Notes: generated by a model not told the origin, from the letters alone. A DNA stretch of 64,000 bases from Candidatus Oxydemutatoraceae bacterium (GCA_965220085.1 CBDCOZ010000003.1:1632001-1696000), one strand, 5' to 3'; shown: positions 26,462-52,740, numbered from the stretch's first letter. Numbers and translations: made by a program.

Positions 26462-27694
26462 ATGAATTGCAAAACTTTCGATACGACTCCCGCGCAACGG
26501 GGCGCAACAATGATACGGCGCAGTCTTTGGGTGCTTCTGTTGCTCGCTGTTGTCTGCGCTCAGGCACAAGCGCAGACAAATCCGGTGACAGCTTCCACTA
26601 GCGTGGATGTATACACCACGCACACCGCCAACAACCCATACAGGTTCAAGATAGCCGACTTCCCTTTTACTGATACGAACGGCCGTAGCCTGCTTAGAGT
26701 GGTGTTTCAATTTCCCGGCCCCGACAACTTCAATGGCAACCTGCGCAATCCTCTCTCTCCAACAGTCGTACTCGAACAGACATACGTCAGAACCGCAGAC
26801 GATCTCAGGGACGGTAATCTGGTCTATTACCCAGCGGCGGGTCAGACCCCGCAAACTGGCTACGACAGCTTTACGTTCCAGGTGCAGGTTCTGAGAGAGC
26901 AGACGAATACGCAAACCTTCTACGACACCAGTAACGAGGCTACCATGACCATCAACCTGGTGATTGAGCCCCCGGCTGCCCCCACCGGCACCCCCGCCGT
27001 GACCGCCACCGACAGCATGGCCACTGCCCACAATGAGGATGTGGAGCTGACCGCTAGCACAGGCACCGTAATCGATGACAACTACATTGATACCGACACC
27101 CTGATGTGGCAGTGGCAACAGTCCGCCACCATGGCCGGCACATATGAAAACATCGACGGATCCAACGCCGCCACTTTCACACCCCAGCAGGAACATGTCG
27201 ACCAATACATCCGCGTCTGCCTCCGTTTCACCGATGGCATAGGCACCGTCGAGGGGCCGCTGTGTTCCCCCGGCAATATCATCACCGCTGTCAATGATGC
27301 CCCCACCAGCGAAAATGCTTTTGTGGATGTGCCCATCACCGCAACCGCAGACGAGCCCTATGTCTTCAAGACCTCCGACTTTCCATTCATGGACGAGGAG
27401 GATGGTACCACTCTGGGCGGCGTAGACATAGCCAGCACCGTCGCATCTGGCAAGGGCGAATTGCGCATTGGAAGCGGGTCTGCCGCCCTCGGCAACCTGC
27501 CCGCGGGCTCAATCAATATACTCACCTATTATCCCCCGCCTAACATCACCGCTACCCCTAACTTTGCCACTTTCACCTTCAAAGTGACCGATGTCGGCGG
27601 CGCCAGAAGCGAAATCCATAGGATGACCATCAACCTGAAGTCCTTCGATATACGCTTGCGGTTGCGCCTCTTCCTCGAAGGCCCGCTACGATAG
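26462..27694 (+). CDS. Secreted Ig/cadherin-like surface protein, RLRLRLFLEGPLR C-terminal family (solitary copy)
   Basis: Leader MNCKTFDTTP...RRSLWVLLLLAVVCAQAQA. Two cadherin-like domains (F...DFPF.D...YYP...FTF.V...MTINL) flank an Ig-like WQWQQ...TFTP...YIRVC domain. Ends DIRLRLRLFLEGPLR. Confidence 0.85.
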   Translation: MNCKTFDTTPAQRGATMIRRSLWVLLLLAVVCAQAQAQTNPVTASTSVDVYTTHTANNPYRFKIADFPFTDTNGRSLLRVVFQFPGPDNFNGNLRNPLSPTVVLEQTYVRTADDLRDGNLVYYPAAGQTPQTGYDSFTFQVQVLREQTNTQTFYDTSNEATMTINLVIEPPAAPTGTPAVTATDSMATAHNEDVELTASTGTVIDDNYIDTDTLMWQWQQSATMAGTYENIDGSNAATFTPQQEHVDQYIRVCLRFTDGIGTVEGPLCSPGNIITAVNDAPTSENAFVDVPITATADEPYVFKTSDFPFMDEEDGTTLGGVDIASTVASGKGELRIGSGSAALGNLPAGSINILTYYPPPNITATPNFATFTFKVTDVGGARSEIHRMTINLKSFDIRLRLRLFLEGPLR

Positions 27695-28562
27695 CGCGAG
27701 CCATCCTCGGCGCTTGCACGACACACTCTTGAAGGCCCGCTACGATAGCGCGAGCAACCCACGGCGCTCGCACGACACACTCTCTTAAAGGCCGGTTGCG
27801 ATAGCGCAAGCAACCCACGGCGCTCGCACCGACACACTCTCTTGAAGGCCCGCTGCGATAGCGCGAGCAACCCACGGCACTCGCACGACACACTCTCTTG
27901 AAGGCCGGTTGCGATAGCGCGAGCAACCCACGGCGCTCGCACGACACACTCTCTTGAAGGCCCGCTGCGATAGCGCGAGCAACCCACGGCGCTCGCACGA
28001 CACACTCTCTTGAAGGCCGGCTGCGATAGCGCAAGCAACCCACGGCGCTCGCACAACACACTCTCTTGAAGGCCGGCTGCGATAGCGCGAGCAACCACAG
28101 CACTCGCACGACACACTCTCTTGAAGGCCGGCTGCGATAGCGCGAGCCATCCCCGGCGCTCGCACGACACACCCTTGAAGGCCGGCTGCGATAGCGCGAG
28201 CAACCCACGGCGCTCGCACGACACACTCTCTTGAAGGCCGGCTGCGATAGCGCGAGCAACCCACGGCGCTCGCACGACACACTCTCTTGAAGGCCGGCTG
28301 CGATAGCGCGAGCAACCCACGGCGCTCGCACGACACACTCTCTTGAAGGCCCGTTGCGATAGCGCGAGCAACCCACGGTGCTCGCACGACACACTCTTGA
28401 AGGCCGGCTGCGATAGCGCGAGCAACCCACGGCGCTCGCACGACACACTCTTGAAGGCCGGCTGCGATAGCGCGAGCCATCCCCGGCGCTCGCACGACAC
28501 TCTCTTGAAGGCCCGTTGCGATAGCGCGAGCAACCCACGGCGCTCGCACGACACACCCCTTG
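27677..28562 (+). repeat. Tandem array of 16 units of 54-57 bp (consensus GAAGGCCSGYTGCGATAGCGCGAGCAACCCACGGCGCTCGCACGACACACTCTCTT)
   Basis: Unit starts read at 27677, 27731, 27787, 27844, 27900, 27956, 28012, 28068, 28123, 28177, 28233, 28289, 28345, 28399, 28453, 28507. The first unit overlaps the last codons and stop of the upstream gene. Each unit has a GCGAGC...GCTCGC stem. Confidence 0.95.
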
Positions 28563-28783
28563 GAGCTGACGAGCGCGTAGCCCGACGACAACCGCAAACT
28601 TTCCGCTCGCAATCGTGTCCGTCGCGCCGTTTTGATGCGCGCCCCGCAGACAGCCCCGCAACGAAGAGGGAAGCATATTTGACTCCGCCCGCATATTAAA
28701 TGAGGGGAATGTGAAAGAGCGCGTCCTCAAATCGGACGCTAAAGTTGCGGGCAGACGGTTGACTGATAACAAACTTTCTGCCG

Positions 28784-28816
28784 AAAAATAAAAAAGGGTG
28801 TGTTGCCACACCCTTT
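28784..28816 (-). terminator. Intrinsic terminator downstream of the small coiled-coil ORF
   Basis: AAAGGGTGTG-TTGC-CACACCCTTT hairpin, followed on the minus strand by TTTTTTATTTTT. Confidence 0.8.
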
Positions 28817-28853
28817 ATAGAAACCACAATGATGGCTAAAATGATGGTTTGGG

Positions 28854-29427: not shown

Positions 29428-30633
29428 TTACGATTTTCGGTTCTGCAAGCGCAGGCGCAGGGCGTTTAACTTGATGAAGCCTTCGGCATCGCGTTGATCA
29501 AAACTGCCGCCGTCATCCTCAAAACTGGCCATCTTCCGGTCAAACAGGCTGTTCGGCGAGCGCCGTCCGAGCGCCGTCACATTGCCTTTGTATAGACGCA
29601 GACGCACATCGCCGTTCACATCGCGCTGACTTTCGTCGATCATCCTCTGCATCATCGCGCGTTCCTGACTCCACCAATACCCGTTGTAGATCAGCGAAGC
29701 ATAACGCGGCATCAATTCATCTTTCAGGTGCGCCACTTCGCGATCCAGCGTCAGCGATTCAATCGCGCGGCGCGCTTTGAGCAATACGCTGCCGCCGGGG
29801 GTTTCATAGCAGCCGCGCGATTTGATCCCGATATACCGATTCTCCACGATATCAATCCGGCCGATGCCGTGCGCGCCCGCCAATTGATTGAGGCGGGACA
29901 ACAAAGCCGCCGGCGACAACATTTCGCCATCCAGCGCCACCGGGTCGCCGTGTTGAAAACCGATCTCAATATCAGCCGGCTGCGCGGGAGCCCGCTCCGG
30001 CGCGCAACTGCGTTGCCACATCGCATCGGCGGGGGCCTGCCACGGATCCTCCAACTCCTCGCCCTCATACGAACTGTGCAGCAGGTTGGCATCCGTTGAA
30101 TACGGCGATTTGCCGCTGCGGGATTCCACTTCGATGCCGTGCGCGGCGGCATAAGCCAGCAGGTCACTGCGCGAAACAAAATCCCATTCGCGCCACGGCG
30201 AAACGATCCGGATGTCGGGGTTGAGCGCATACGCGCCCAGTTCAAAACGTATCTGGTCGTTGCCTTTGCCGGTCGCGCCGTGTGCGATGGCATCGGCGCC
30301 GACTTCCCCGGCAATCTCTGTCAGGCGCTTGGCAATCAACGGGCGGGCGATAGAGGTGCCGAGCAGGTATTCGCCTTCGTAAATCGCATTGGCGCGAAAC
30401 ATGGGAAAGACAAAATCGCGCACGAAAGTCTCGCGCAGATCTTCGATATAGAAGTCGGCCGCGCCCAACGCTCTGGCTTTCGCCTCGACTTGGCCGAGGT
30501 CTTCGCCCTGCCCGATATCGGCGGTGAAGGTATAGACTTCGTAGCCGCGCTCCTTTTGCAACCATTTTAATATGACCGACGTATCCAGTCCGCCCGAATA
30601 AGCCAGTACCACTTTGGCAGCGCCGTTCATCAT
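29428..30633 (-). CDS. argG: Argininosuccinate synthase
   Basis: [43 protein letters not shown]. Confidence 0.98.
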
Positions 30634-30712
30634 CATTCCAGTCCTGTGAAATATAGTAGAATATGGCCATTATATTCGTATATGATATATTGATAACAAG
30701 CGCCTGATCGAC

Positions 30713-31768
30713 ATGCAAATATCCGACAAACAAATCAACATGATCAAGCCCGATGACTGGCATCTCCACGTAAGGGACGGCGATATATTGAGGCTGGTCG
30801 TGCCGTGGACAGCGCGCGCGTTTTGCCGCGCCATCATCATGCCCAATCTGAGCCCTCCGATTACCGATGTCGAGGCCTGCGGCGCATATCGCGAGCGGAT
30901 CAAAGCGGCGGCGCCGGCGGGGTTTGAGCCCTTGATGACGCTCTACCTGACCGAAACGATGCCGCCTGATACGATTCGCAAAGCAAAAAACAGCGGCTTC
31001 ATCTACGCTGTTAAAATGTACCCCAAAAACACGACTACGCATTCCGGTGTCGGAGTGCAAGACATCGAGCGCGTATTTCCGATACTCGAGGAGATGCAAA
31101 ACTGCGATATGCCGCTGTTGATACACGGCGAACACCCCGACAAAAGCATCGACATATTTGATCGCGAAAAAATATTTATAGACAAGATTCTGAGTTCCAT
31201 CCGCAAGCGCTTTGACACACTGCGGATTGTGTTGGAACATATCACAACCCGCGATGCGATTGATTACGTAAGCGACAGCGACGCCAAGACCGCCGCGACG
31301 ATCACGCCGCACCACCTGCTGTACTCGCGCAACGCCCTGTTTGACGGCGGCCTGCGACCGCACCACTATTGCTTGCCGTTGCCGCAACGCGAACACCACC
31401 GCGAAGCCTTGATACAAGCCGCTACCAGCGGCAAAGCCTGCTTCTTCGCCGGCACCGACAGCGCGCCGCATTACAAGCACGAGAAAGAGAGTTCCTGCGG
31501 ATGCGCGGGCGTGTTCAACGCGCCGGCGGCGCTCGCGGCATATGCTTCTGTCTTTGAGGCCGCGGACAAACTTGAGCGCCTGGAGGCGTTCGTGTCTTTG
31601 CACGGAGCGGCGTTCTACGGACTGGAGCCCAACACACAACGCATCACGCTGGCGCAAGAAGAGGAAGTCATCGCCGAAAGCATTGAAAGCAATGACGGAA
31701 CGCTGGTGCCTTTGTTTGCCGGAAAGGCGGTGAAATGGCGCATACACGACAACGGAGAGATAGCCTGA
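30713..31768 (+). CDS. pyrC: Dihydroorotase (type II)
   Basis: PDDWHLHVRDG, MPNL, KMYP..TTHS, LEHITT, FAGTDSAPH. Confidence 0.97.
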   Translation: MQISDKQINMIKPDDWHLHVRDGDILRLVVPWTARAFCRAIIMPNLSPPITDVEACGAYRERIKAAAPAGFEPLMTLYLTETMPPDTIRKAKNSGFIYAVKMYPKNTTTHSGVGVQDIERVFPILEEMQNCDMPLLIHGEHPDKSIDIFDREKIFIDKILSSIRKRFDTLRIVLEHITTRDAIDYVSDSDAKTAATITPHHLLYSRNALFDGGLRPHHYCLPLPQREHHREALIQAATSGKACFFAGTDSAPHYKHEKESSCGCAGVFNAPAALAAYASVFEAADKLERLEAFVSLHGAAFYGLEPNTQRITLAQEEEVIAESIESNDGTLVPLFAGKAVKWRIHDNGEIA

Positions 31769-31797
31769 AAGGACCGAACGAAGAGCAGAAAGAATGG

Positions 31798-32415
31798 ATG
31801 CAAACGCGCTTTCGCAGCTTTATGCCGGTAGTCGTCGATGTGGAAACCGGCGGTTTCAACGCGAAAACAGATGCATTGCTTGAGATTGCGGCGGTGTTGA
31901 TCGGCGTCAGCGACGATATGCGGTTATACGCGGAGAAAGTATTGCACCATCACGTGGAGCCGTTTGAGAATGCCAACCTTGAGGAGGAATCTCTCAAGGT
32001 AAACCAGATCGACCCGTTCCACCCCTTGCGCATGGCCAAACCGGAGAAACTTGTGCTGGAGAATTTGTTTGCCGAAATCCGCGCCGCGCTCGGTCGCTAT
32101 CGCTGTTCGCGGGCGATCCTGACCGGTCACAACGCGTCTTTTGATCTCAAGTTCTTAAACGCCGCCGTCGTGCGCAACGGCATAGCGAACAACCCTTTTC
32201 ACCGCTTCAGCAGTTTTGACACGGTGACGCTCGGCGCGCTCGCGTATCGCCAGACCGTGCTGGCCAAAATTGCCGATGCTTCGGGCTTGCGGTGGGACGA
32301 ATCCAGCGCACACTCGGCAATCTATGATGCCAAGGTAACCGCCGAGATATTCTGTGCGGTATTTAATCAATACCCCGACGGGCGGCGGGCGCAACCCGAT
32401 CAGAAATATACTTGA
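31798..32415 (+). CDS. rnt: Ribonuclease T (start approximate)
   Basis: RFRSFMPVVVDVETGGFN, GHNASFD, NPFHRFSSFDT, AHSAIYDA (DEDDh). Confidence 0.95.
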   Translation: MQTRFRSFMPVVVDVETGGFNAKTDALLEIAAVLIGVSDDMRLYAEKVLHHHVEPFENANLEEESLKVNQIDPFHPLRMAKPEKLVLENLFAEIRAALGRYRCSRAILTGHNASFDLKFLNAAVVRNGIANNPFHRFSSFDTVTLGALAYRQTVLAKIADASGLRWDESSAHSAIYDAKVTAEIFCAVFNQYPDGRRAQPDQKYT

Positions 32416-32429
32416 AAGAGGCTGATACC

Positions 32430-32978
32430 ATGAAGGCTTTGTCTCCGTTCGCGCTGTACTGTATGTTGCTGTTTGCTTCGGTCGCGGCATTGGAGTATCT
32501 GACCGATGACCGTCCGCCGCCCGCTCAAGACCGCGCCCGGAACACGCAAGAAAGCAGAAACCTGTTGCAGCAAACCACGATGAGCGCTTACGCCGCCGAC
32601 GGCAAATTGACCTACCGGTTGCAAAGCCCGGAGTTGTGGCACTTTTCCGATTCCGGCAATATGCGGTTTGCCAAGGTTGAATTTGAATATTACCCGCAGT
32701 CCGACCCGGGCCTTCGCGCGTCGGCGGAAAAAGGCACGACCAGCAAAGCCAAAAATGAAATCTATCTGGATGGCCGCGTGACGCTGGAACGCCGGGACGG
32801 GCTGACGCTGGACACGCGCGATGTAACCGTTTCTCTGACTAGAAAAGTTGCGCATACCGATCAGCCCGCTACTTTGGCACACGACAACCATACGACGCAG
32901 GGAGTCGGGATGTTTGCGGATCTGGATAAGAACGAGATACGCCTGCAATCCCGCACACGAACGCGCTATGAAGACTAA
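32430..32978 (+). CDS. lptC: LPS export ABC transporter periplasmic protein LptC
   Basis: N-terminal TM, beta-jellyroll-like sequence (G.LTYRL.S, GVGMFADL), directly upstream of lptA-lptB. Confidence 0.85.
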   Translation: MKALSPFALYCMLLFASVAALEYLTDDRPPPAQDRARNTQESRNLLQQTTMSAYAADGKLTYRLQSPELWHFSDSGNMRFAKVEFEYYPQSDPGLRASAEKGTTSKAKNEIYLDGRVTLERRDGLTLDTRDVTVSLTRKVAHTDQPATLAHDNHTTQGVGMFADLDKNEIRLQSRTRTRYED

Positions 32979-33444
32979 AGCCTCTCTCCGCATCGCCGCC
33001 ATCGGCCTGCTGACAGCGCTGGCCTGTGCGGCCGAGTCGCCGCCAATCAATCTGGAAGCGGATGAAGCGAGTTACAACCACGAAAGCGGCATCAGCATCT
33101 ATCGCGGCAATGTCAAGGTGACCAGCGGCGATATCACTTTGACCGGCGATACCGTCGAAGTGTTCGCCAGCGAGGGCGAGGTGACCAAAGCGATTGCCAG
33201 CGCCAAGCCAAGCCGCTTTGCCCAACGAGACGGAGACAATGTGCTCAAAGCGGAAGCGTTGAAAATTGAGTATCATCTCGTCGATAACATCATCAAACTG
33301 ACCGGCAAGGTGCGCATCATAGACAACGACAAGACCTTCTCCGGAGAACATGTCATCTACAACATCGGCAAGAAAACCTTCGTCGCCAAAAAGCAGAAGA
33401 AACGCATCAAGTTAAATTTGCGGCGCGCTCGCAAAAAAGAATAA
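32968..33444 (+). CDS. lptA: LPS transport periplasmic protein LptA
   Basis: Signal peptide, PINLEAD, YRGNVKVT.G, LTGKV, SGEHVIYNI. Confidence 0.9.
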   Translation: MKTKASLRIAAIGLLTALACAAESPPINLEADEASYNHESGISIYRGNVKVTSGDITLTGDTVEVFASEGEVTKAIASAKPSRFAQRDGDNVLKAEALKIEYHLVDNIIKLTGKVRIIDNDKTFSGEHVIYNIGKKTFVAKKQKKRIKLNLRRARKKE

Positions 33445-33449
33445 GGCCG

Positions 33450-36286: not shown

Positions 36287-36301
36287 AGGGCGCGAGAACC
36301 G

Positions 36302-36817: not shown

Positions 36818-36841
36818 TTGAGACCGCCGCCGGCAGGTCGC

Positions 36842-41117: not shown

Positions 41118-41162
41118 CGGTATCTCGCAGTGTCGTAAGCAAGGTAGCGCTGCGACTACAAC

Positions 41163-42965: not shown

Positions 42966-44607
42966 CTACCGCAACGGGCCTTCCAGGAAAAGGCGCAGGC
43001 GCAAGCGCAAGCGTTGCTCCAGATTTATCGTGATGGTGGCGGCATGGGCGCTGGTATTGCGGGTGATGGGTTGGCCAGCGTCATCAAGGTCGCCGCTCGG
43101 TTCATCGCCATCGTCGGTTACTTTGAAGGTGAATGCGGCATAGCCGCTCTGGACGCTCTGCCCGTCCGCCGGCCAGTAGGCGATGGCGCCGATGTTGGCG
43201 GCGGCCACGCGCTGACCGACAGTGGCGTCGGCGCCGCCTACCCGCAGGGTGCCGGCATCCGGCAGGCTGGCAATCTCCACGCTGGCCAAGTTGTCGCCGT
43301 CCTCATCATCAAAGGGAAAGTCTCTGATTGCGAACCTGAAAGGCCGGTTCATCGTGGCATCCGCCGACACATTTATCGTGCGGTCCCGGGGTATGGGCGC
43401 ATCGCTGGCGTTGTGCACCCGGGCGGCGGCGGAGCACAGCCCCGTCACAGTCTCCGGCATGGCGTGAAGATCTCTATAACTGACGCAGACGCGGATGTAC
43501 AGGCCGATATGCTCCAGCATGGGGGTGAATGAATCGCCAGTGGTACCGGGTATGGCGGTGAAAGTGCCGTTTATGGCGGCGGATGACCGCCATTCCCACT
43601 CAAGTGTGCGCAAGTCTATGCCATTGGGCTCCACTATGCCCTCTCTTCTGGCAAACAGTGCGGTATCTTCGGCGTAGGTCGGGGCTTCAACAGCGGTGGG
43701 GTTGCCGGGGTTGGTGACTATGGTGGGCCTGCCGCTGGTGGCAACCTGGGCTGTCGATACCAGACGGATAAAGATTTGGTTGGTGGTTCTGGAGGCCATG
43801 TTGCTGGTGCCATCGCTGCCATCATCGGTCACACCGAAAGCGATGATATCGTACGAGGCATTGGCATCATCAGGGTCGGTGGGTTGCTGGCCCGGCTCCG
43901 GGTAATAGGTCAGAGCGCCGGCATTCAGTTGGGCCACAGTTATGGGGTTTTCGGGGACGGCGGTCAGGGCCGTGCCATTCAGGGCCAGGGTGCCATTATT
44001 GGGCACTCGATTCAGGGTGACACTGGCCAGCATGTCGTTATCGGCATCCTCAAAAGTGAAGTCGGTTGACGGGAGCACATAGGGGTTCGCGGAAGTGGCG
44101 GTGGTCGCCACCGAAATGAAGTTGGCGGTGGGCATCGGCCGGTCATTGATGTTGGCCACGGCGGTGGCTATCTGGTTGCATCGCTGCTCGTCATTGCCGC
44201 CGCTGTCGGTGAACGATGCGCAGACCCGCAGAAACTTGCCCACCTCGTCATCGCCCGGAGTGAAGGCGGCCCTGTCCGCGCCGACGATGTCGGTATAGAT
44301 GCCGCCATTGCTATCGGCCGCACTCCACTGCCAGGCCAGGGTGCCGACCGTGGTGGTTGGCGTATTGTCCGGGTCTTCTATGCCGCCTTGGGATGCGGTG
44401 ATGGCGGAGTCTTCGGTGGGAGCGGCTATGCCGCTGGCGTAGGCGACCATCGGCATGCCGGTAGCATTGTCCTGTGCCTGTGCTTGAGTAGATACGATGA
44501 GGAAAGCGAGCAACAAGAGCGGGCAGAGACCGCACCCGCTCAGGTCAATTCGGCACGGGGGGGGGGGGGGGGGGGGGGGGCATCAGTATTAAAATTTGTT
44601 GTTTCAT
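42966..44607 (-). CDS. LEGPLR-family secreted protein with four Ig/cadherin-like domains; frameshifted by poly-C24 after codon 9 (putative phase-OFF)
   Basis: RBS AGGA and ATG at 44607 give MKQQILILM-P8-VPN-stop. A tract of 3n+2 C would join it to the long ORF (…LLLLAFLIVSTQAQA…RLRLRLFLEGPLR). Confidence 0.8.
44557..44580 (-). repeat. Homopolymer G24 (+) / C24 (coding strand)
   Basis: Counted directly; matches the RGGGGGGGA translation in the ORF track. Confidence 0.9.
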
Positions 44608-45126: not shown

Positions 45127-45978
45127 CTATCGCAACGGGCCTTCCAGGAAAAGGCGCAACCGCAAGCGTATATCAGGCGGCAACTGTGTCACCTGATGAG
45201 CGTCTGTGCTACACAGCGGCCCTTCCGATGCGGGCATGGAAAACTGATCCTTGAAAGAAACACAGGCGCGGACGTACCTGCCCAGTTGTGCGGCAGTCGG
45301 TGCGAAATCTGAGGAATAAGTAGCGCCCGCTATGTCGCTGTAAGCACTGGGTGCGGGAACACCGCTGGCGGGGGCGTCGGCCTGTTGCCACTGCCAACTC
45401 AAGGTGCTGACATCAATGCCGTTGAGGTCCGTCACACCGGTGATGGAAGCGCTAATCCGGTGCGTGTCTGTGGCGGTGGCGATTGCGGGCGCGCCGCTGG
45501 CGGCCGTCTGCGCGAGGGCCCCAATCAGATTGATGGTCATGGTGGCCTTGCTATCGACACCCCCAGTCTGTATCGCAAAGGTAAAACTGTCGTAACCGTT
45601 GGCGACAGAGATGGCAGTGACCGGGGGGGTGTAGGAGACACCCTGGCTACTACTCGTTCCGGTGAGGTCAGAGGCGAGGTATATAAATGTCTGACCATCA
45701 CCGTCACCTGCGAGTGCCACCATGATATTGGTCCGGATATCTATCAGCCTGCCATTGGCGGGGTAGGAGAAGACCAGCACAGCGCCACTGGTAAGACCGA
45801 AATCTGCGGCGGTGAAGTAATATGTGCCGCCGCCAATCGGGACATCAACACTCTGGTCTGTCGCCTGGGCATAAACATGGGTTGCGCCCAATGCCAAGGG
45901 CAGAATCAGCAGAATAAGCAACCGACGGCTAAGCCGGGTTAGTGTTCGGGGGGCAGTATCAAAAATTTGGCAGTTCAT
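45127..45978 (-). CDS. LEGPLR-family secreted protein (short leader, N-domain alpha, C-module X)
   Basis: AGGAG RBS before MNCQIFDTAPR; signal peptide ...LALGATHVYA; ends LPPDIRLRLRLFLEGPLR. Confidence 0.85.
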   Translation of the reverse strand: MNCQIFDTAPRTLTRLSRRLLILLILPLALGATHVYAQATDQSVDVPIGGGTYYFTAADFGLTSGAVLVFSYPANGRLIDIRTNIMVALAGDGDGQTFIYLASDLTGTSSSQGVSYTPPVTAISVANGYDSFTFAIQTGGVDSKATMTINLIGALAQTAASGAPAIATATDTHRISASITGVTDLNGIDVSTLSWQWQQADAPASGVPAPSAYSDIAGATYSSDFAPTAAQLGRYVRACVSFKDQFSMPASEGPLCSTDAHQVTQLPPDIRLRLRLFLEGPLR

Positions 45979-46085
45979 AGTATTTCTCCTGATGGTTTGG
46001 GTTTCGTGAATGCGGTTGTGCAATGAGTCGCACCATCTCTTGTGCGCCTCATAACACTCTCCTTTTCCGCCGTAGGTTACTTGCA

Positions 46086-47404
46086 TCATCGCAGGGGGCC
46101 CTCAAGGAAGAGACGCAACCGCAAGCGCAGATTTGAGATGCCGCTATCCGCGCCAGTCTCTATGCCAAAGGTCAGTGTGCCTGTATCGCCGTCTGCGTCG
46201 GTGGCGGTGAGGGTATAGGCGGTCTTGGCAACCGTAGCGGTGGGGGTGCCGCTTATGGTGCGGGTGGCTGCGGTGAAACTGAGGCCCGCGGGCAAGGCCG
46301 GGGTCAGGCTGTATGTGACAGCGCCATTGCCGCCGGTCGCCGCAGGCAGAATCAAGTCGGTGATGGCCTTGCCGGTCACCCAGACCTGATCCGCCACCGA
46401 TGTATTGTCGAAGAAGGGCACATTGGATACCAGTACGCCAGTGCTACACAGCTCTGAGGATGCCGGAGCGGAGAACTGGTCCATGAATGCGGCGCAAACC
46501 CGCAGGTACTTGCTCGCGTGTGCGGCAAGGGGTGTGAAGTTTGAGGAAATTGTGCCTCTGGCAACGGTTATATCGCTGTAGGCACTGATTGCATTGGCGC
46601 CAACGCCTATCACATCGGCCTGCTGCCACTTCCAGGTCAGGGTGGCGACATCAATGCCGTTGGGCTCCGTCACACCGGCGATGGATGCCGTAAGCAGCAC
46701 ACCGGTGTTATAGGCGGTGGCGCCCATGGCGGCCGCAACAGTGGGCGCGCCGCTGGCGGCCGTCTGCGTGGATGCTCCCACCAGATTGATGGTCACGGTG
46801 GCCGTGGTATGGTTGGCACCGACATGCAACTCAAAGATGAAGCTGTCATAACCGTTGGCGACAGAGATGGCAGCGGTCGGGGGCCTGTATTCGACGGTTC
46901 CGACTCCAGTGGAGAACTCAATCGGGAAATATGCATCTGTATTATCGTCATCAACACTTGAAACGCCCACGTCTCGCACAAGACTGGTATCAAATAACCT
47001 GCCATGAGTGGGTTGGGTTTGGAACATCAGTATTTGGGAGTCAAGACCGCCGAAATCTATTTTCCTGAGCACATATCCGTTGCTTCCAATAGTGACATCA
47101 ACACTGGTGTCCGAGGCTTGAGCGTTAGCCTGTGTCGCGCCCAATGCCAGACACAGGACCAACAGGCAACGCATGAGCGGATCCGACCACAGTCCGGCAG
47201 GCAGGCGGACCGCAACAGACCGCAACCACGACAACAGACCGCGCACAGCCGGGCGGCGCGACCGCTTTGCGGATGGCGGGTTGCTATGTGCGGGTGATAA
47301 AAAACGGGTGAGAAGGCGATACGGCGAAACGCCGGCAATCCCCTTACTTACAAAGCTGCGGGGGGGGGGGGGGGGGGTATCAGTATTAAAATTTGTTGTT
47401 TCAT
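46086..47404 (-). CDS. LEGPLR-family secreted protein (long leader, N-domain beta, Ig plus He_PIG-like C-module Y); frameshifted by poly-C18
   Basis: AGGAG RBS and ATG at 47404 give MKQQILILI-P6-AAL-stop; 3n+1 C restores the frame. He_PIG-like LPAGLSF...TISGTPT. Ends NLRLRLRLFLEGPLR. Confidence 0.8.
47360..47377 (-). repeat. Homopolymer G18 / C18
   Basis: Counted directly. Confidence 0.9.
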
Positions 47405-47853: not shown

Positions 47854-49005
47854 CTATCGCAACGGACCCTCAAGAAAGAGCCGCAGCCGCAAGCGCAGAT
47901 TTGAGATGCCGCGATCCGCGCCCGTCTCTATGCCAAAGGTCAGCGTGCTTGTATCGCCGTCTGCGTCGGTGGCGGTGAGAGCATAGGCGGTCTTGGCAAC
48001 CGTAGCGGTGGGGGTGCCGCTGATGGTGCGGGTGGCTGCGGTGAAACTGAGTCCCGCGGGCAGGGCCGGGGTCAGGCTGTACGTGACAGCGCCATTGCCG
48101 CCGGTCGCCGCAGGCAGAACCAGGTCGGTGATGGCCTTGCCGGTCGCCCAGACCTGATCCGCCACCGATGTATTGTCGAAGAAGGGCACATTGGATACCA
48201 GTACGCCAGCGCTACACAGCGGCCCTTCCGATGCGGGCGTGGAGAACTGGTCCATGAATGCGGCGCAAACCCGCAGGTACTTGCTCGCGTGTGCGGCAAG
48301 GGGTGTGAAGTTTGAGGAAATTGTGCCTGTGACAGTGGTTATATCGCTGTAGGCGCTGATTGCATTGGCGCCAATGCCTATAATATCGGCCTGCTGCCAC
48401 TTCCATGCCAGAGTGCCGACATTGATGCCGTTGGGCTCAGTCACACCTGTGATGGAGGCAACCAGCGGCACACCGGTGTTATAGGCGGTGGCGGTTGTGG
48501 CGGCCGCAACAGTGGGCGCGCCGGTAGCGGTCATCTGCGTGAGTGCCCCCACCATGTTGATGGTCACGGTGGCCGTGGTATGGTTGCCACCGACATGCAA
48601 CTCAAAGATGAAGCTGTCATAACCGCTGACGACAGAGATGGCAGTGGCCGGGGGCCTGTATTCGACACGATGGGTTCCGCCAGAGAAATCGATCGGGAAA
48701 TATCCATCCGCCTGATCGCCATAAACACTTGAAACCGCCACGTCTCGCATATCATTGGTATTATACAACCTGCCATGAGTGGGTTGGGTTTGGTATCTCA
48801 GTGTTTGGGAAACAAAACCGCCGATATCTGTTTTCTCGAGTGTATACCCACTGCTTCCAATAGCGACATCAACACTGGTGTCCGAGGCTTGAGCGTTGGC
48901 CTGTGTCGCGCCCAATGCCAAGGGCAGAATCAGCGACCAGCGGCTAAGCCGCGTCATCGTTGCCCGCCGGTGCCGGGGGGCGGTATCAGAAATTGGGTAG
49001 TTCAT
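47854..49005 (-). CDS. LEGPLR-family secreted protein (short leader, N-domain beta, C-module Y)
   Basis: AAGGAG RBS, MNYPISDTAPR...LALGATQANA; C-half nearly identical to the 46086 gene; same terminal motif. Confidence 0.85.
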   Translation of the reverse strand: MNYPISDTAPRHRRATMTRLSRWSLILPLALGATQANAQASDTSVDVAIGSSGYTLEKTDIGGFVSQTLRYQTQPTHGRLYNTNDMRDVAVSSVYGDQADGYFPIDFSGGTHRVEYRPPATAISVVSGYDSFIFELHVGGNHTTATVTINMVGALTQMTATGAPTVAAATTATAYNTGVPLVASITGVTEPNGINVGTLAWKWQQADIIGIGANAISAYSDITTVTGTISSNFTPLAAHASKYLRVCAAFMDQFSTPASEGPLCSAGVLVSNVPFFDNTSVADQVWATGKAITDLVLPAATGGNGAVTYSLTPALPAGLSFTAATRTISGTPTATVAKTAYALTATDADGDTSTLTFGIETGADRGISNLRLRLRLFLEGPLR

Positions 49006-49112
49006 CGTATTTCTCCTTCTGGTTTGGGTTTCGTGAATGCGGTTGTGCAATGAGTCGCACCATCTCTTGTGCGCCTCATAACATTCTCCTTTTCCGCCGT
49101 AGGTTACTCGCA

Positions 49113-49979
49113 TCATCGCAACGGGCCCTCAAGAAAGAGGCGCAACCGCAAGCGTATATCAGGCGGCAACTCTGTCACCTGAGTGCCGGCGCTACACAGC
49201 GGCCCTTCCGGTTCCGGCGTGTCATGCTGATCCATAAAAGAAACACAGGCGCGCACATACCTGCCCAGTTGGGCGGCAGTCGGTGCGAAGAGGGAAGAAG
49301 TGGCATCCTCTATGTCAACAATGTAGTCGCTGGGTGCGGGAACACCGCTGGCGGGGGCGTCGGCCTGTTGCCACTGCCAGCTTAGGGTGCCGACATCAAT
49401 GCCGTTGAGGTCCGTCACACCGGTGATGGAAGCGCTGATCCGGTGCGTGTCTGTGGCGGTGGTGATTTTGGGCGCGCCGCTGGCGTCCGTCTGCGTGGAT
49501 GCGCCCACCAGATTGATGGTCATGGTGGCCCTGATATGGTTGCCGAAGGAACGTGTCTCAAAGATGAAGCTGTCGTAACCGTTGACGACAGAGACGGCAG
49601 CGGCCGGGGGCCTGTACTCCATAGTACCGGTTCCGCCGGAGCCGGTGAAATCGGCGCTCCAGAAATGTGCATCCCCGCCATCATCATCACCTAAAACGTC
49701 CACGTCTCGGTTAAGAGAGACATTAAACACCCTGCCATGAGTGGGTTGGGAGTAGAGATACAAAGTTCCATGGGTGGATCCAAAACCGCCGAAATCTGTA
49801 CGCTTAAATACATATGCGCCGCCAATCGGGACATTAACACTGCTGGCTTGAGCTTGAGCGTTGGCCTGTGTCGCGCCCAATGCCAAGGGCAGAATCAGCA
49901 GAATAAGCGACCGGCGGCTAAGCCGGGTCATCGTTGTCCGCCAGCACCGGGGGGCAGTATCAAAAATTTGGCAGTTCAT
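49113..49979 (-). CDS. LEGPLR-family secreted protein (short leader, N-domain gamma, C-module X)
   Basis: AGGAG RBS, MNCQIFDTAPR leader, same terminal motif. Confidence 0.85.
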   Translation of the reverse strand: MNCQIFDTAPRCWRTTMTRLSRRSLILLILPLALGATQANAQAQASSVNVPIGGAYVFKRTDFGGFGSTHGTLYLYSQPTHGRVFNVSLNRDVDVLGDDDGGDAHFWSADFTGSGGTGTMEYRPPAAAVSVVNGYDSFIFETRSFGNHIRATMTINLVGASTQTDASGAPKITTATDTHRISASITGVTDLNGIDVGTLSWQWQQADAPASGVPAPSDYIVDIEDATSSLFAPTAAQLGRYVRACVSFMDQHDTPEPEGPLCSAGTQVTELPPDIRLRLRLFLEGPLR

Positions 49980-51698
49980 AGTATTTCTCCTAATGGTTTG
50001 GGTTTCGTGAATGCGGTTGCAATGAGTCGCACCATAAACAATCCGCAAACAGTTGATGGAGCACAATACTTAATTGTTTGTGCCTCATTAAATGTTGCTT
50101 GTGTACATAACTCACAAAGCGCAAGTCATCCACAAGTATCTTTGTATCCTGTCTCATCCTCTTGTGCACCTCATAACTATCCTTCTCCGCAGCTACGCAC
50201 TACCGCAACGGGCCTTCAAGGAAAAGGCGCAGGCGCAGGCGTATATCAGGCGGTAGCTCTGTCACCCGAGTGCCGGCGCTACACAGCGGCCCTTCCGGTT
50301 CCGGCGTGTCATGCTGATCCATAAAAGAAACACAGGCGCGCACATACCTGCCCAGTTGGGCGGCAGTCGGTGCGAAGAGGGAAGAAGTGGCATCCTCTAT
50401 GTCAACAATGTAGTCGCTGGGTGCGGGAACACCGCTGGCGGGGGCGTCGGCCTGTTGCCACTGCCAGCTTAGGGTGCCGACATCAATGCCGTTGAGGTCC
50501 GTCACACCGGTGATGGAAGCGCTAATCCGGTGCGTGTCTGTGGCGGTGGTGATTTTGGGCGCGCCGGTAGCGGCCGTCTGCGTGGATGCTCCCACCAGGT
50601 TGATGGTCATGGTGGCCATCGTATCGACACCCCCAGTCAGTATCGAAAAGGTAAAACTGTCGTAACCGTTGGCGACAGAGATGGCAGTGGCCGGGGGTGT
50701 GTAGGAGACACCCTGGCTGTTAGCCGTTCCGGTGAGGTCAAAAGCGAAGTATGCAAACGTCTGACCATCACCGTCACCTGCGAGTGCCACCATGATATTG
50801 TTCCGGATATCTATCAGCCTGCCATTGGCGGGGTGGGAGAAGAACCGCACAGCGCCACTGGTAAGACCGAAATCTGCGGCAGTAAAGTAATATGTGCTGC
50901 CGCCAATCGGGACATTAACACTCTGGTCCGTCGCCTGGGCATAAACATAGGTTGCGCCCAATGCCAAGGGCAGAATCAGCAGAATAAGCGACCGGCGGCT
51001 AAGCCGGGTCATCGTTGTCCGCCAGCACCGGGGGGCAGTATCAAAAATTTGGCAGTTCATAGTATTTCTCCTAATGGTTTGGGTTTCGTGAATGCGGTTG
51101 CAATGAGTCGCACCATAAACAATCCGCAAACAGCTGATGGAGCACAATACTTAATTGTTTGTGCCTCATTAAATGTTGCTTGTGTACATAACTCACAAAG
51201 CGCAAGTCATCCACAAGTATCTTTGTATCCTGTCTCATCCTCTTGTGCACCTCATAACTATCCTTCTCCGCAGCTACGCACTACCGCAACGGGCCTTCAA
51301 GGAAAAGGCGCAGGCGCAGGCGTATATCAGGCGGTAGCTCTGTCACCCGAGTGCCGGCGCTACACAGCGGCCCTTCCGGTTCCGGCGTGTCATGCTGATC
51401 CATAAAAGAAACACAGGCGCGCACATACCTGCCCAGTTGGGCGGCAGTCGGTGCGAAGAGGGAAGAAGTGGCATCCTCTATGTCAACAATGTAGGCGATG
51501 GGTGCGGGAACACCGCTGGCGGGGGCGTCGGCCTGTTGCCACTGCCAGATTAGGGTACCGACATCAATGCCGTTGAGGTCCGTCACACCGGTGATGGAAG
51601 CGCTAATCCGGTGCGTGTCTGTGGCGGTGGTGATTTTGGGCGCGCCGGTAGCGGCCGTCTGCGTGGATGCCCCAACCATGTTGATGGTCATGGTGGCC
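49873..51698. repeat. ~745-bp near-identical direct repeat pair (49873-50617 and 50954-51698, offset 1081)
   Basis: Each copy spans C-module X, the intergenic region and the leader of the next gene; only a few substitutions visible. Confidence 0.9.
50200..51060 (-). CDS. LEGPLR-family secreted protein (short leader, N-domain alpha, C-module X)
   Basis: AGGAG RBS; N-domain close to the 45127 gene, C-module close to the 49113 and 51281 genes. Confidence 0.85.
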   Translation of the reverse strand: MNCQIFDTAPRCWRTTMTRLSRRSLILLILPLALGATYVYAQATDQSVNVPIGGSTYYFTAADFGLTSGAVRFFSHPANGRLIDIRNNIMVALAGDGDGQTFAYFAFDLTGTANSQGVSYTPPATAISVANGYDSFTFSILTGGVDTMATMTINLVGASTQTAATGAPKITTATDTHRISASITGVTDLNGIDVGTLSWQWQQADAPASGVPAPSDYIVDIEDATSSLFAPTAAQLGRYVRACVSFMDQHDTPEPEGPLCSAGTRVTELPPDIRLRLRLFLEGPLR

Positions 51699-52302
51699 GT
51701 GGTCTCGACGCCACCTCTAAGTATCACGAAGATGAAGCTGTCATAACCGTTGACGTCAGAGATGGCAGCGGTCGGGGGCCTGTATTCGATATCACCGGTT
51801 CCGCCAGAACCAGAGAAATCGCCCCAGAAATATGTATCCAAAAAGCCATCATCAACACCTGAAACGGCCAAGTTTTCGTTAAGAGAGACATCAAACACCC
51901 TGCCATGAGTGGGTTGGGTGTAGAGAAACAAACTTCTGCCGGATCCAAAACCGCCGAAATCCGTACGCTTGAATACATATGCGCCGCCAATCGGGACATT
52001 AACACTGCTGGCTTGAGCCTGAGCGTTGGCCTGGGTTGCGCCCAATGCCAGGCACAGGGCCAGCAGGCAACGCATGAGCGGACCCGACCACAGTCCGGCG
52101 GGCAGGCGGACCGCAACAGACCGCAGCCACAACAACAGACCGCGCACAGCCGGGCGGCGCGACCGCTTTGCGGATGGCGGGTTGCGATGTGCGGGTGATA
52201 AAAAGCGGGTGAGAAGGCGATACGGCGATACGCCGGCAATCCCCTTACTTACAAGGCTGCGGGGGGGGGGGGGGGTATCAGTATTAAAATTTGTTGTTTC
52301 AT
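51281..52302 (-). CDS. LEGPLR-family secreted protein (long leader, N-domain gamma, C-module X); frameshifted by poly-C15
   Basis: AGGAG RBS and ATG at 52302 give MKQQILILI-P5-AAL-stop; 3n+1 C restores the frame. The longer ORF start at 52381 has no evident RBS. Confidence 0.8.
52261..52275 (-). repeat. Homopolymer G15 / C15
   Basis: Counted directly. Confidence 0.9.
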
Positions 52303-52567
52303 ATCTATCTCTCCTATGACAGTCTGTATATCGTGAATGCAGTCGTGCGATGAGTTCTGCGCACTCTGCCACAAAATGCAAGTCATCTATCAGTTTCTGT
52401 ATCTCCTGCTTCTAGCAAATTTAATTATACGTTATATGTCCACAAACTGTTTGCAGACTGTTTAATATTGCACTATACCACAAGTTCGGTCATTTGCAAA
52501 TTGGATTGAAATCTAGGTTTTATCTAGGTTTGTGTCGCACTATACCACAAAGTGCGAATCATGCAAG
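52277..52567 (-). promoter_or_regulatory. Promoter/leader cassette, copy A
   Basis: Near-identical to copies B and C; TTGTGGTATAGTGC at 52470-52483 and 52537-52550. Confidence 0.75.
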
Positions 52568-52642
52568 TGCCTTTGTATCCTGCCTCTCTCCCCTTGTGTG
52601 CGCCCCCAGAATACTCGCCTGCTCCGCCGCCGGGTATTCGCA

Positions 52643-52740
52643 TTATCGCAGGGGACCTTCAAGGAAGAGGCGCAGGCGCAAGCGTATATCAGGCGGCAAC
52701 TCTGCCACCAGACTGCCTGTGCTACACAGCGGCCTTTCGG
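52643..52740 (-). pseudogene. 3' relic of a LEGPLR-family gene
   Basis: Only ~32 codons (PERPLCSTGSLVAELPPDIRLRLRLFLEGPLR-stop) match the family; the upstream part has no signal peptide or family similarity. Confidence 0.75.

Follow-up and report, generated by a model that had tools for sequence, protein, structure and literature searches.

A 13-residue C-terminal strand on secreted proteins of a Candidatus Oxydemutatoraceae bacterium as a possible docking tag for a single-copy socket protein

We analyzed a 64-kb stretch of the Candidatus Oxydemutatoraceae genome (hereafter the window), the genome to which it belongs and related genomes with respect to a short peptide, RLRLRLFLEGPLR, which stands directly before the stop codon of many otherwise different genes. 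We propose that the fission of a single domain has given rise to a natural tag-and-catcher system, in which a 13-residue strand (the tag) carried by about 180 secreted proteins docks into one socket protein, and in which slippage in poly-C tracts chooses the cargos that are loaded. Such a system would represent a novel type of signal for sorting or anchoring in Gram-negative bacteria and a programmable, phase-variable coat of the cell surface. Taken as a whole, we consider this proposal to have an even chance of being correct, and its parts are graded separately below.

All nine copies of the tag that an earlier note had described in the window were present, one on the plus strand and eight on the minus strand, each closing a reading frame. 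The plus-strand copy (tag and stop at 27653-27694) ends the first cargo gene (26462..27694), whose product carries the leader MNCKTFDTTPA, a signal peptide ending in VVCAQAQAQ, and cadherin-like and Ig-like domains. The minus-strand cargo genes are located at 42966..44607 (tag and stop, 42966-43007; 516 aa from the signal peptide), 45127..45978 (45127-45168; leader MNCQIFDTAPR, with two Ig-like domains; its mature part was used for structure prediction), 46086..47404 (46086-46127) and 47854..49005 (47854-47895), both with He_PIG as the third domain, 49113..49979 (49113-49154) and 50200..51060 (50200-50241), both with two domains, and 51281..52302 (51281-51322). The remaining copy belongs to a relic, a 97-aa frame at 52643..52936 on the minus strand that retains only the end of a second domain (...PLCSTGSLVAELPPDI) and the tag (52643-52684). 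Sec signal peptides and an invariant Cys pair are visible in the cargo sequences, as the note had stated for the full-length members. Its He_PIG-like domains were confirmed by Pfam in two of the nine proteins, and the remaining cargo domains are Ig-like by fold only.

Two further features of these genes had no place in the earlier account. In three of the minus-strand genes the leader runs into a poly-C tract: MKQQILILM is followed by 24 nt in 42966..44607 (G run at 44557-44580 on the plus strand), and MKQQILILI by 18 nt in 46086..47404 (47360-47377) and by 15 nt in 51281..52302 (52261-52275); in the first and the last of these genes the leader is out of frame in the assembly. Long poly-C tracts in the 5΄ coding leader, with the gene out of frame in the assembly, are a feature of many cargo genes of the genome, and suggest phase variation of these genes. 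The other feature is a non-coding tandem array on the plus strand at 27677..28556 (15.9 copies of 56 nt, 92% matches), the unit of which consists of the last tag codons, the stop codon and a GCGAGC...GCTCGC hairpin.

The scale of the family proved to be about twenty-fold larger than the nine paralogues that the note had recognized. A genome-wide search of the 2.49-Mb genome with the pattern [FL]LEG[PA]LR returned 223 matches, 218 of which were directly followed by a stop codon (TAG, 138; TAA, 52; TGA, 28), and a reversed control pattern had no match in this genome. Chance is thus excluded as the origin of the tag copies. Among the 218 frames ending in RLRLRLFLEGPLR, 180 encode at least 150 aa and together make up 19% of the genome DNA, while the other 38 are shorter than 150 aa and are short or relic frames. 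The nine window copies differ only synonymously in their 13 tag codons and use all three stop codons (TAG, 6; TGA, 2; TAA, 1), as previously noted. We also searched at the DNA level with a 39-nt consensus, allowing up to 9 mismatches and applying no peptide criterion, so that the search itself was free of selection for the peptide. The 220 copies obtained in this way contained 1066 synonymous and 104 non-synonymous codon changes, and 62 of the latter were replacements of L by I or V at a single position. Third codon positions therefore vary freely while the peptide stays constant, and the earlier claim that selection acts on the peptide is confirmed. The tag was found in three genera among the family genomes searched and is thus not limited to recent duplicates; no Pfam or NCBIfam model matched it in the nine window proteins, in line with the previous view that it differs from LPXTG, PEP-CTERM, GlyGly-CTERM, MYXO-CTERM and the BAM beta-signal.

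The likeness to the domain-opening strand 'LKVFLEGPY' of Bacteroidota surface proteins, to which the note had pointed, was confirmed and led to a larger unit. Seventy longer proteins carry a module homologous to the tag and socket combined, with the order 'LKVFLEGPY ... VDWVLVELR ... HRNHL ... two GDxNxDG loops'. After strand 1, the module shows DPY/QPY, VDWVLxELR, LLSNGxVVD, HRNH, YDFT and two DxNxDG loops. The strand-1 pattern L[KR]V[FY]LEG[PA][YF] was found 45-60 aa upstream of VDWVLVELR in 26 of the 70 proteins using a strict regular expression and in 55 using a loose one; examples such as LSLRVFLEGAY and LNVKVFLEGPY can be compared directly with the tag. The module forms the extreme C-terminus in 69 of the 70, other domains of which include S8, M12, C25 and LTD, and the source names available for seven of them are Bacteroidota or Marinimicrobia (Bacteroidales, Chitinophagales, Bacteroidia, Ferruginibacter and others). 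In an AF2 model of one such protein (P0114), the module was predicted with pLDDT values of 83-96, and a strand is predicted at residues 385-390, within a region of pLDDT 75-96; it falls where strand 1 is expected and shortly precedes the conserved L393. The module is not covered by any Pfam or NCBIfam model, and a structure search matched only the neighboring Fn3/Ig domain and found no solved relative of the module itself. Precomputed annotation assigns Dockerin_1 to one cis homologue, and 19% of one Atlas cluster carry it as well. The module is a unit of about 230 aa in which two dockerin-like calcium loops come after a beta-rich part, and these sequence computations show the tag to be homologous to its strand 1.

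The remainder of the module is encoded by a separate gene. In the relative G015, two 3,500-aa tagged genes are each followed, after about 34 nt, by a gene for a 276-aa secreted protein (P0093), and a socket gene also lies directly 3΄ of tagged genes in G017 and G002. The only P0093 homologue in the present genome is the 320-aa P0094 (C3:469175-470134; E 4e-21), which makes the socket gene single-copy here. In a MAFFT alignment the sockets span the whole module, with their signal peptide at the place of strand 1. The cargo proteins, for their part, end immediately behind this strand. The match of P0093 to Dockerin_1 (E 0.017; 15.8 bits) is under the cut-off of 22.9, and P0094 has no Dockerin_1 match. 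We conclude on computational grounds that cargo and socket together represent a split member of the module, and the alignment shows both the existence of the split and its exact boundary. Free sockets equipped with signal peptides were found in at least 10 genomes. In G001, 34 module matches lie within giant frames and carry an in-cis 'VKARAWLQGAY', so that, as read from the sequences, both unsplit and split states occur within the family. The corresponding stages (unsplit, split but adjacent, and one socket for many tags) may all be preserved in this one family, a part of the tag-and-catcher proposal to which we give neither more nor less credence than to the whole.

The earlier note had suggested a donor strand that docks onto a scaffold. 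A candidate acceptor that lacks exactly this strand is now at hand, and we predicted its complex with the tag using socket residues 29-320 and a 34-aa cargo tail. The three runs scored 0.78, 0.80 and 0.82, compared with 0.01 for the best of three controls; 58 of 80 complexes of known structure pass the score mark, as do 2 of 110 mismatched pairs, a calibration that is only rough here because the alignments were our own. The runs share at least 70% of their contacts, with partner pLDDT values of at least 57, and confidence in the fold of the complex model is moderate (pLDDT 57-62). The predicted interface is formed by residues 18-32 of the cargo tail, which correspond to the tag, the closest pairs being with socket residues 212-217 and 170-173, and the tag is placed between two socket strands. 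These models support the donor-strand idea, and we consider it likely that the tag docks on the socket by strand complementation in trans.

According to the proposed mechanism, gene fission would have split the module such that the cargo kept strand 1 and the socket became the Sec-exported remainder, with a signal peptide in the place of strand 1. After export, the terminal strand of a cargo would insert between two strands of the incomplete socket to yield a non-covalent complex, which we infer to form in vivo. One socket gene would serve approximately 180 cargo genes encoding Ig-like or cadherin-like adhesin-type proteins, giants of up to 15,193 aa and S8 proteases; such a ratio would be strange if more than a few cargos were switched on at the same time. 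Judging by the poly-C leaders and the out-of-frame genes, the cargos on display are probably a limited set that can be switched.

The gene neighborhood offers possible routes for what would follow. The order here is a T2SS operon, the socket gene, a gene for a GlyGly-CTERM protein (P0097) and a rhombosortase gene (TIGR03902, 96 bits against a cut-off of 84). The C-terminus of P0097 consists of GGGGGGGG, a transmembrane stretch and then RRQRRYE; at least two GlyGly-CTERM proteins exist, adjoining the socket or N-terminally tagged proteins, and the T2SS of this genome is complete. In G010 and G006, too, only about 5 kb separate the socket gene from gspL, and in G011, G007, G015, G017 and G002 it lies 5-14 kb from the rhombosortase gene. 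The module occurs in 17 of 19 family genomes and GspL in all 19, and both are absent from 34 genomes of the order's other three families. T2SS and rhombosortase are near-universal in the family genomes whether or not a tag was found, and therefore do not discriminate. Cargos may cross the outer membrane via the neighboring type II secretion system, and the socket might then keep them at the cell surface, held by its dockerin-like half, by the adjacent GlyGly-CTERM protein, lipid-anchored through rhombosortase, or by both. This socket-based anchoring is a guess, which we base on the dockerin-like loops and the gene neighborhood. No tag was found in the socket-bearing genomes G010, G006 and G013 using two patterns, nor in G009 using the first pattern; in these species either the tags may have diverged or the sockets may work without tags.

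We considered whether the peptide might just complete, in cis, the domain that each cargo ends with. Some tags do directly abut the final strand of a cadherin-like domain (...ATITINLEQRLRLRL), but the tag follows Ig-like, He_PIG or S8 subtilase domains (it ends two subtilases), which are mutually unrelated; among the window paralogues it stands after domain 2 in some and after the third domain in others. The sequences ahead of it are of at least four unrelated kinds, the linkers range from 0 to about 13 residues, and three proteins carry the tag near the N-terminus, behind the signal peptide and ahead of a GGSSS linker. The cargo domains of the window have 105 matches in this genome and none in 18 family genomes (E ≤ 1e-5), whereas the tag occurs in three genera. 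In an AF2 model of a window cargo, based on an alignment of only eight sequences, the tag (residues 231-244) is coil with a pLDDT of about 55, beside two Ig-like domains. We accordingly regard this explanation, which the earlier note had named among the outcomes that would refute its idea, as very improbable. Slightly more room is left for a functionless tag, either a relic of a truncated module spread by gene conversion or a DNA repeat or terminator read as peptide. Approximately six bases 3΄ of the stop codon (CGCGAG) are moderately conserved, non-coding arrays of the tag 3΄ end occur with periods of 56, 58, 156 and 168 nt, and the 38 frames below 150 aa could be counted in its favor. The strong excess of synonymous changes and the use of all three stop codons argue against it, as does the constancy of the peptide between genomes of 56% G+C (here) and 44% G+C, where FLEGP is retained and RVRVKV replaces RLRLRL. 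In addition, 183 cargo relatives are tagged, and the 41 untagged ones are nearly all fragments or frameshifted, as judged from their listing. This explanation thus seems improbable to us.

Amphipathic LPS-binding peptides show an alternating basic and hydrophobic pattern, and the tag could bind LPS or the outer leaflet directly by charge and hydrophobicity, with no protein partner. One face of the tag is all Leu and the opposite face Arg/Lys, and between genera this pattern is kept while the residues change (RLRLRL, RVRVKV, LLRVKL). The strictly invariant part is nevertheless FLEGP and not the basic residues, which vary and are mostly dropped in the variants VHVRVLLEGLLP and VQVRVLLEGLLN; moreover, the equivalent strand is predicted to be buried in the folded module of cis forms. 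Direct binding of this kind is scarcely more probable than a tag without function. The most serious competitor, although still an unlikely one, is a self-sufficient linear sorting signal for the T2SS, a translocon or a processing enzyme, with the socket being a periplasmic escort or unrelated to the function of the tag. Nearly all tags are at the extreme C-terminus, both here (218 of 223) and in all tag-bearing rows from other sources, the cargos are provided with Sec signal peptides, the genome encodes a complete T2SS, and the invariant FLEGP resembles a recognition motif for an enzyme or receptor. Against this stand the origin of the tag sequence, homologous to a structural strand inside a domain, the conservation of the complementary remainder as a separate secreted protein directly 3΄ of tagged genes (G015, G017 and G002), the three proteins with an internal tag near the N-terminus, and the searches for sortase and exosortase, which returned no match. 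Furthermore, the T2SS is found in all 19 family genomes, whereas tags are found in three genera only.

The proposed docking resembles several known systems in part. In chaperone-usher and type V pili, a short amphipathic strand, in which every other residue is hydrophobic, completes the incomplete beta-sandwich of another polypeptide, and the predicted position of the tag between two socket strands is similar. In contrast to pili, the donor here is at the C-terminus of unrelated cargos, one acceptor would serve many donors without forming a polymer, and the likely origin is fission of one domain. A chaperone-usher system was rejected, as usher PF00577 has no match in the genome and the cargos are not pilins. 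As in cohesin-dockerin systems, a short common module on many cargos would plug into a common holder, and the C-terminal half of the socket shows two dockerin-like calcium-loop motifs in the alignment, with a sub-threshold Pfam match; the docking element is, however, a 13-residue strand and not a folded dockerin. SpyTag is a strand split from a domain, as the tag appears to be, with no isopeptide chemistry implied here. The 'LKVFLEGPY' module itself is reproduced motif by motif by tag and socket together; like the tag, it sits C-terminally on diverse secreted enzymes and adhesins, but here it is shared between two polypeptides, with the cut where strand 1 ends.

T9SS CTDs, PEP-CTERM, LPXTG and the beta-signal likewise stand at the C-termini of numerous secreted proteins within a single genome. 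For PEP-CTERM and LPXTG, a transmembrane helix is required together with an exosortase or sortase. The tag is not followed by a transmembrane helix and PF09721 is unmatched in this 99% complete genome, which speaks against PEP-CTERM; the LPXTG motif is absent and sortase PF04203 is unmatched in the genome. T9SS CTDs are folded domains of 70-100 aa, compared with 13 residues for the tag, and Por_Secre_tail and TIGR04183/04131 had no match on the nine window proteins; a genome-wide search with PF18962 also had no match, and neither did its positive control. The BAM beta-signal ends in an aromatic residue, while the tag ends in R here and in Q, N, E or P in relatives, and the folded part of the cargo consists of two Ig-like sandwiches. 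The T2SS, rhombosortase and GlyGly-CTERM together are reported to put VesB on the cell surface of V. cholerae (PMC6219818). All three parts are present in this genome (rhombosortase, GlyGly-CTERM proteins and T2SS). The tag itself cannot be a rhombosortase substrate, having no Gly-rich stretch, transmembrane helix or basic tail, so that rhombosortase-type anchoring would at most concern the holder.

Known C-terminal sorting signals depend on a membrane-embedded processing enzyme (LPXTG, PEP-CTERM and GlyGly-CTERM) or on a folded domain (T9SS CTD). If the present proposal is correct, a single beta-strand complementing a domain that is provided in trans would be a new mode of handling secreted proteins in Gram-negative bacteria. 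It would also give a first clue to the function of a widespread C-terminal module that lacks annotation, the named homologues of which are mostly from Bacteroidota, and a clean natural case in which domain fission has led to docking, the intermediates being found in sister genera. The 13-residue tag and its partner protein could serve as a pair for protein engineering. For the organism itself, the proposal would account for the ability of a small genome to run a very large and apparently phase-variable adhesin-like repertoire with one common holder.

Six-frame translation of the window returned nine copies of RLRLRLFLEGPLR followed immediately by a stop codon, one on the + strand and eight on the – strand, so that every copy of this 13-residue C-terminal peptide (hereafter, the tag) claimed by the earlier note was found in its place. 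Eight copies terminate ORFs of 315–516 aa, and the ninth terminates a 97-aa relic frame. Across the 13 codons, the nine copies differ only synonymously, and the stop codons that follow are TAG (six), TGA (two) and TAA (one). The same translation of the whole genome under study (G000; 2,492,841 bp in 3 contigs, 56% G+C) yielded 223 matches to [FL]LEG[PA]LR, in 218 of which a stop codon followed immediately (TAG 138, TAA 52 and TGA 28). Tagged ORFs of at least 150 aa numbered 180 and summed to 157,812 aa, or 19% of the genome length; eight exceeded 3,900 aa, and the longest reached 15,193 aa. The tag also ended 38 short frames, many of which were tandem partial copies downstream of real genes.

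Because the first codon count had selected sites on the peptide itself, it was redone at the DNA level using a 39-nt consensus with up to 9 mismatches. The 220 sites retrieved from G000 carried 1066 synonymous and 104 non-synonymous codon changes relative to the consensus, and 62 of the 104 were changes of L to I or V at a single position. An information profile over the tag copies was three-periodic and faded within ~6 nt past the stop codon, where CGCGAG is moderately conserved. In addition, a relative with 44% G+C has kept FLEGPLR and has RVRVKV in place of RLRLRL, a physico-chemically similar pattern. Taken together, the codon counts, the profile and the conservation in this relative uphold the claim that selection acts on the peptide.

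Housekeeping genes occupy positions 134–26033 and 29428–42455 of the window (hflX-like GTPase, argJ, secA, M23 peptidase, lpxC, ftsZ–mraZ dcw cluster, argG, prolyl oligopeptidase, adk, PPi-type PFK, OmpA-family protein, icd and isocitrate lyase). This setting, in which the dcw cell-division cluster is accompanied by secA and lpxC, identifies the host as Gram-negative. Its FtsZ shares only ~55% identity with the nearest named records retrieved (Methylophilaceae, Nitrosomonadaceae, Ectothiorhodospira and others), a set from which G000 itself and very close genomes may be missing. Directly past the tagged gene on the + strand, positions 27677–28556 hold a tandem array of 15.9 copies of a 56-nt unit (92% matches), which consists of the last tag codons, the stop codon and a GCGAGC/GCTCGC hairpin; the long antisense ORFs at 27529–28811 are an artefact that it produces. 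Other tagged genes are followed by comparable arrays, whose periods are 58, 156 and 168 nt (for example, C3:648656–648944, 513720–514188 and 908934–909438, C3 being a G000 contig). At 45978–46127 and 49005–49154 of the window, tagged genes are arranged head to tail, and no more than ~60 nt separate a stop codon from the start of the conserved 5΄ region (..CATTGCACAACCGCATTCACGAAACCCAAA.., a ribosome binding site and ATGAACTGCCAAATTTTTGATACTGCCCCCCGG) that belongs to the gene after it. This packing suggests that whole tagged-gene units, including their flanks, have been duplicated.

The tagged proteins of the window are modular: the leader and signal peptide are followed by a cadherin-like domain, then by a second domain, which is Ig-like and contains an invariant Cys pair, in some cases by a third domain, and finally by the tag. 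The third domain is He_PIG (matched by Pfam in two of nine proteins) or a second cadherin-like unit. A Foldseek search with an AF2 model of the mature 244-aa protein encoded at 45130–45861 on the – strand (two beta-sandwich domains; mean pLDDT 79 from an alignment of 8 sequences) retrieved tandem Ig/Fn3 adhesion molecules with a best E-value of 6e-5 and low TM-scores. Elsewhere in G000, two S8 subtilases (1,356 and 2,037 aa) and a 506-aa protein without a Pfam family also terminate in the tag. Giant tagged genes are found at C3:1323205–1488230 and C3:1770458–1838155 (6,024, 13,236, 9,776, 15,193, 14,212, 4,102 and 3,997 aa). Immediately 5΄ of the 1,448-aa tagged ORF T049 lies a frame of 4,223 aa, and the two probably represent one gene broken by a frameshift. 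When ORFs resembling the non-tag part of tagged proteins were collected in G000, 183 were tagged and 41 were untagged; judged from their listing, most of the latter were fragments, pieces of frameshifted genes, ORFs in a wrong frame or proteins with a degenerate tag.

Many tagged genes are also associated with homopolymers. In G000, C or G runs that reach 8 nt or more number 100, and many measure 13–28 nt. Eighty of them are coding-strand runs at the 5΄ ends of tagged ORFs, and 79 of the 180 such ORFs are affected. The poly-C tract separates the short conserved leader (M[KN]xQxFNT, e.g. MNRQIFNT, or MKQQILILM) from the signal peptide. The frame from tract to tag is open in 78 of 79 genes; the leader was in frame in 12 of 79, a figure subject to crude start-finding and to the unreliability of homopolymer lengths in assemblies. 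Three tracts lie in the window at 44557–44580, 47360–47377 and 52261–52275, as G runs on the + strand and therefore poly-C on the coding strand, and contigs from two sequencing runs break at the first. The tracts suggest that ~80 genes undergo phase variation by strand slippage.

We examined the distribution of the tag in 53 genomes of the order. FLEGPxR followed by a stop codon was found 214 times in G000, 16 times in G011, three times each in G015 and G017 and twice in G002, with no match to the control pattern in any of the five; the latter four genomes belong to a single sister genus. The pattern was absent from the remaining 48 genomes and from 400 further sampled genomes of the class. 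Variants extend further: RVFLEGL[LTMF][QND]-stop occurred six times in G007 and FLEGAL[QN]-stop seven times in G003, which represents a third genus (control, 0 in both cases), and loci of G015 read ...VRVFLEGPLQ, ...VRVLLEGLLP, ...VRVLLEGLLN and ...TRLFLEGPAR. One tag pattern was absent from G010, G006, G013 and G009, and counts of a looser one in G010, G006, G001 and G013 were not above control. A word-index homology search with the last 40 residues returned six proteins, all from G000; as such an index fails to retrieve the tag, we scanned 1.84 billion representative proteins in full with a HMMER profile of 32 tails, which gave 88 hits (E ≤ 0.001). We checked 85 of these, the other three (P0002, P0004 and P0006) being G000 proteins: 45 were in the G000 ORF set, two were short G000 frames, four lacked the tag, and 34 were proteins of other origin, in which the tag lies no more than two residues from the extreme C-terminus, if not directly at it.

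A candidate partner was found in G015, in which two tagged genes of ~3,500 aa end in ...LLRVKLFLEGPFR and each has, ~34 nt downstream, a gene that encodes P0093, a secreted protein of 276 aa. Its motifs (...VVDWVLMELR..., ...VVARKPAFLLSNGRVVDA..., ...YLVVRHRNHLDVIS... and a DVNRDGEVNITD loop) we took to be parts of the Bacteroidota module mentioned in the earlier note, and this assumption was then tested. G000 encodes exactly one homologue (C3:469175–470134, 320 aa, E 4e-21), with no further tblastn hit at E < 1. A profile of four such proteins (hereafter, sockets) found the homologous region in 70 longer proteins, in 69 of which it forms the extreme C-terminus, preceded by diverse catalytic or adhesive domains; the source names available for seven indicate Bacteroidota or Marinimicrobia (Bacteroidales, Chitinophagales, Bacteroidia, Ferruginibacter and others). 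The likeness of the tag to an LKVFLEGPY strand was borne out, as L[KR]V[FY]LEG[PA][YF] occurs 45–60 aa upstream of VDWVLVELR in 26 of the 70 proteins with a strict regular expression and in 55 with a loose one. MAFFT aligned the sockets to the unsplit (cis) module from 'M.T.L...P..(Q/D)PY' through the last calcium loop, and placed the first beta-strand of the cis forms (strand 1) opposite the signal-peptide hydrophobic core and AxA site of the sockets. Because the socket signal peptide occupies the position of strand 1, the mature socket starts right past the missing strand, and the tagged protein stops right past the strand; in other words, the two are complementary pieces of one module. In an AF2 model of P0114, a cis protein with the whole module, the module had pLDDT values of 83–96, and a strand at residues 385–390 lay in the strand-1 region, shortly before the conserved L393. 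No model in Pfam or NCBIfam covers the module or the sockets, and a VIA-align comparison of the module-bearing model with 48,161 chains matched only residues 271–382, the preceding Fn3/Ig-like domain. As a lead only, the ESM Atlas clusters that come closest to the socket (score 0.94) comprise unnamed proteins, 215–253 aa in length, that are most frequent in Bacteroidota and Ignavibacteriota.

The module is present in 17 of the 19 genomes of the family Oxydemutatoraceae and in none of 34 genomes of the order's other three families, and its states form a series. The unsplit state is seen in G001, of a sister genus, where 34 matches fall within giant frames (maximum, 17,496 aa) that have strand 1 in cis as 'VKARAWLQGAY'. 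Its modules lie at the ends of giant open frames (e.g. C1:569255–569863 and C1:838839–839195), and in G001 a repertoire of comparable size seems to carry the cis form. The split state with the socket adjoining its tagged gene is found in G015, G017 and G002, and one socket with many tags in G011 (16 tags) and G000 (218 tags). Sockets are also present in G010, G006, G013 and G009. All free sockets that we read have an N-terminal signal peptide and lack strand 1.

We predicted the complex of socket residues 29–320 (20-row alignment) with the 34-aa tail of the + strand tagged gene of the window (32 tails). The scores were 0.78, 0.80 and 0.82, whereas the best of three controls reached 0.01. Of 80 solved complexes, 58 attained the score mark, as did 2 of 110 mismatched pairs, figures that apply only approximately here because the alignments were our own. 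Agreement between runs extended to at least 70% of contacts, and partner pLDDT was at least 57. The predicted interface comprises tail residues 18–32 (SFDIRLRLRLFLEGP), paired most tightly with socket residues 212–217 and 170–173, with additional contacts at 104–111 (VDWVLVDL), 127–139 and 183–200 (around an HRNH motif). In the predicted geometry, the tag strand is slotted between two socket strands, and its Leu face points into the core. The prediction (0.80 for the socket compared with 0.01 for control) supports binding, and with it the donor-strand docking proposed in the earlier note; it does not show it.

In G000, C3:452100–475607 holds in order a T2SS operon, the single socket gene, a gene for a 1,369-aa GlyGly-CTERM protein (P0097) and a rhombosortase gene. 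The operon is complete (gspC, D, A, B and E–M) and ends ~3 kb upstream of the socket. P0097 starts 10 nt past the socket stop codon, has a signal peptide, weakly matches choice-of-anchor U (30.3 bits; cut-off, 32) and has a C-terminal GlyGly-CTERM signal composed of GGGGGGGG, a hydrophobic helix and RRQRRYE; the rhombosortase matches TIGR03902 (96 bits; cut-off, 84). A second GlyGly-CTERM protein (366 aa, PPC domain; C3:1167979–1169079) is encoded close to an N-terminally tagged protein. Rhombosortase was found in 18 of the 19 family genomes, typically ~3 kb from gspL; the socket is ~5 kb from gspL in G010 and G006, and 5–14 kb from rhombosortase in G011, G007, G015, G017 and G002. The T2SS itself, present in all 19, does not discriminate tag-bearing genomes. 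VesB of Vibrio cholerae reaches the cell surface through the joint action of a GlyGly-CTERM signal, rhombosortase and the T2SS (PMC6219818).

Among the alternatives, the least credible is that the tag is simply an in-cis strand of the protein carrying it, a reading we can practically set aside: in the AF2 model of the 45130–45861 protein, the tag (residues 231–244) is coil with pLDDT ~55. The domains of the window's tagged proteins gave 105 matches in G000 and none in the 18 other family genomes (E ≤ 1e-5), whereas the tag crosses genera; this distribution and the variety of carriers indicate that the tag is a module in its own right, not the end of one domain. A functionless relic or DNA repeat, to which the tandem partial copies might point, is highly improbable given the excess of synonymous changes, and direct binding of the tag to LPS is scarcely more probable. 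A self-sufficient signal deserves somewhat more consideration but is unlikely. Three proteins (C1:23865–25292, C1:36355–38001 and C3:1171407–1173515) carry the tag near the N-terminus, after a signal peptide (MKKLL..ASVWA) and ~22 aa and before a GGSSS linker, two of them continuing as PPC repeats; a free C-terminus is therefore not required. The regions around them encode Fic proteins, proteins with PPC domains and one TraT-like protein, and no machinery is evident there.

The tag matched no family in Pfam or NCBIfam; G000 yielded no sortase, exosortase or usher and a single Omp85 with no second copy, and a Por_Secre_tail search of it gave no match, the control likewise matching in no genome. 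Twenty-seven G000 frames with a signal peptide and an aromatic end are outer-membrane candidates; the ten scanned against Pfam comprised two TonB-dependent receptors, porins, FadL, CopB, LppC, YkuD and one without assignment. The unassigned one, C3:242924–244270, occurs in 17 of 19 family genomes but is absent from the tag-bearing G011, and was rejected. The neighbours of the 16 tagged G011 genes showed housekeeping synteny only, with no recurrent partner gene.

We thus consider it likely that the tag is the detached strand 1 of an unannotated module and docks in trans into that module's own remainder. The earlier observation is confirmed and much extended, from nine copies in the window to 218 in the genome, and its donor-strand reading is supported. 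Surface anchoring by way of the T2SS and GlyGly-CTERM is a more tentative possibility, in which tagged protein and socket would be exported through the T2SS and the complex held at the surface by the dockerin-like half of the socket; the adjacent lipid-anchored protein may also hold it. A full-text literature search with motif strings of the tag and module (subscription journals and supplementary files lie outside it) found no relevant paper, and we found the docking arrangement in no family library and no paper of the literature searched. Strand complementation as a principle is familiar from pili, and the module was already known in sequence, though unannotated. What would be new is strand complementation as a general docking tag, born of domain fission and serving one fifth of a genome.
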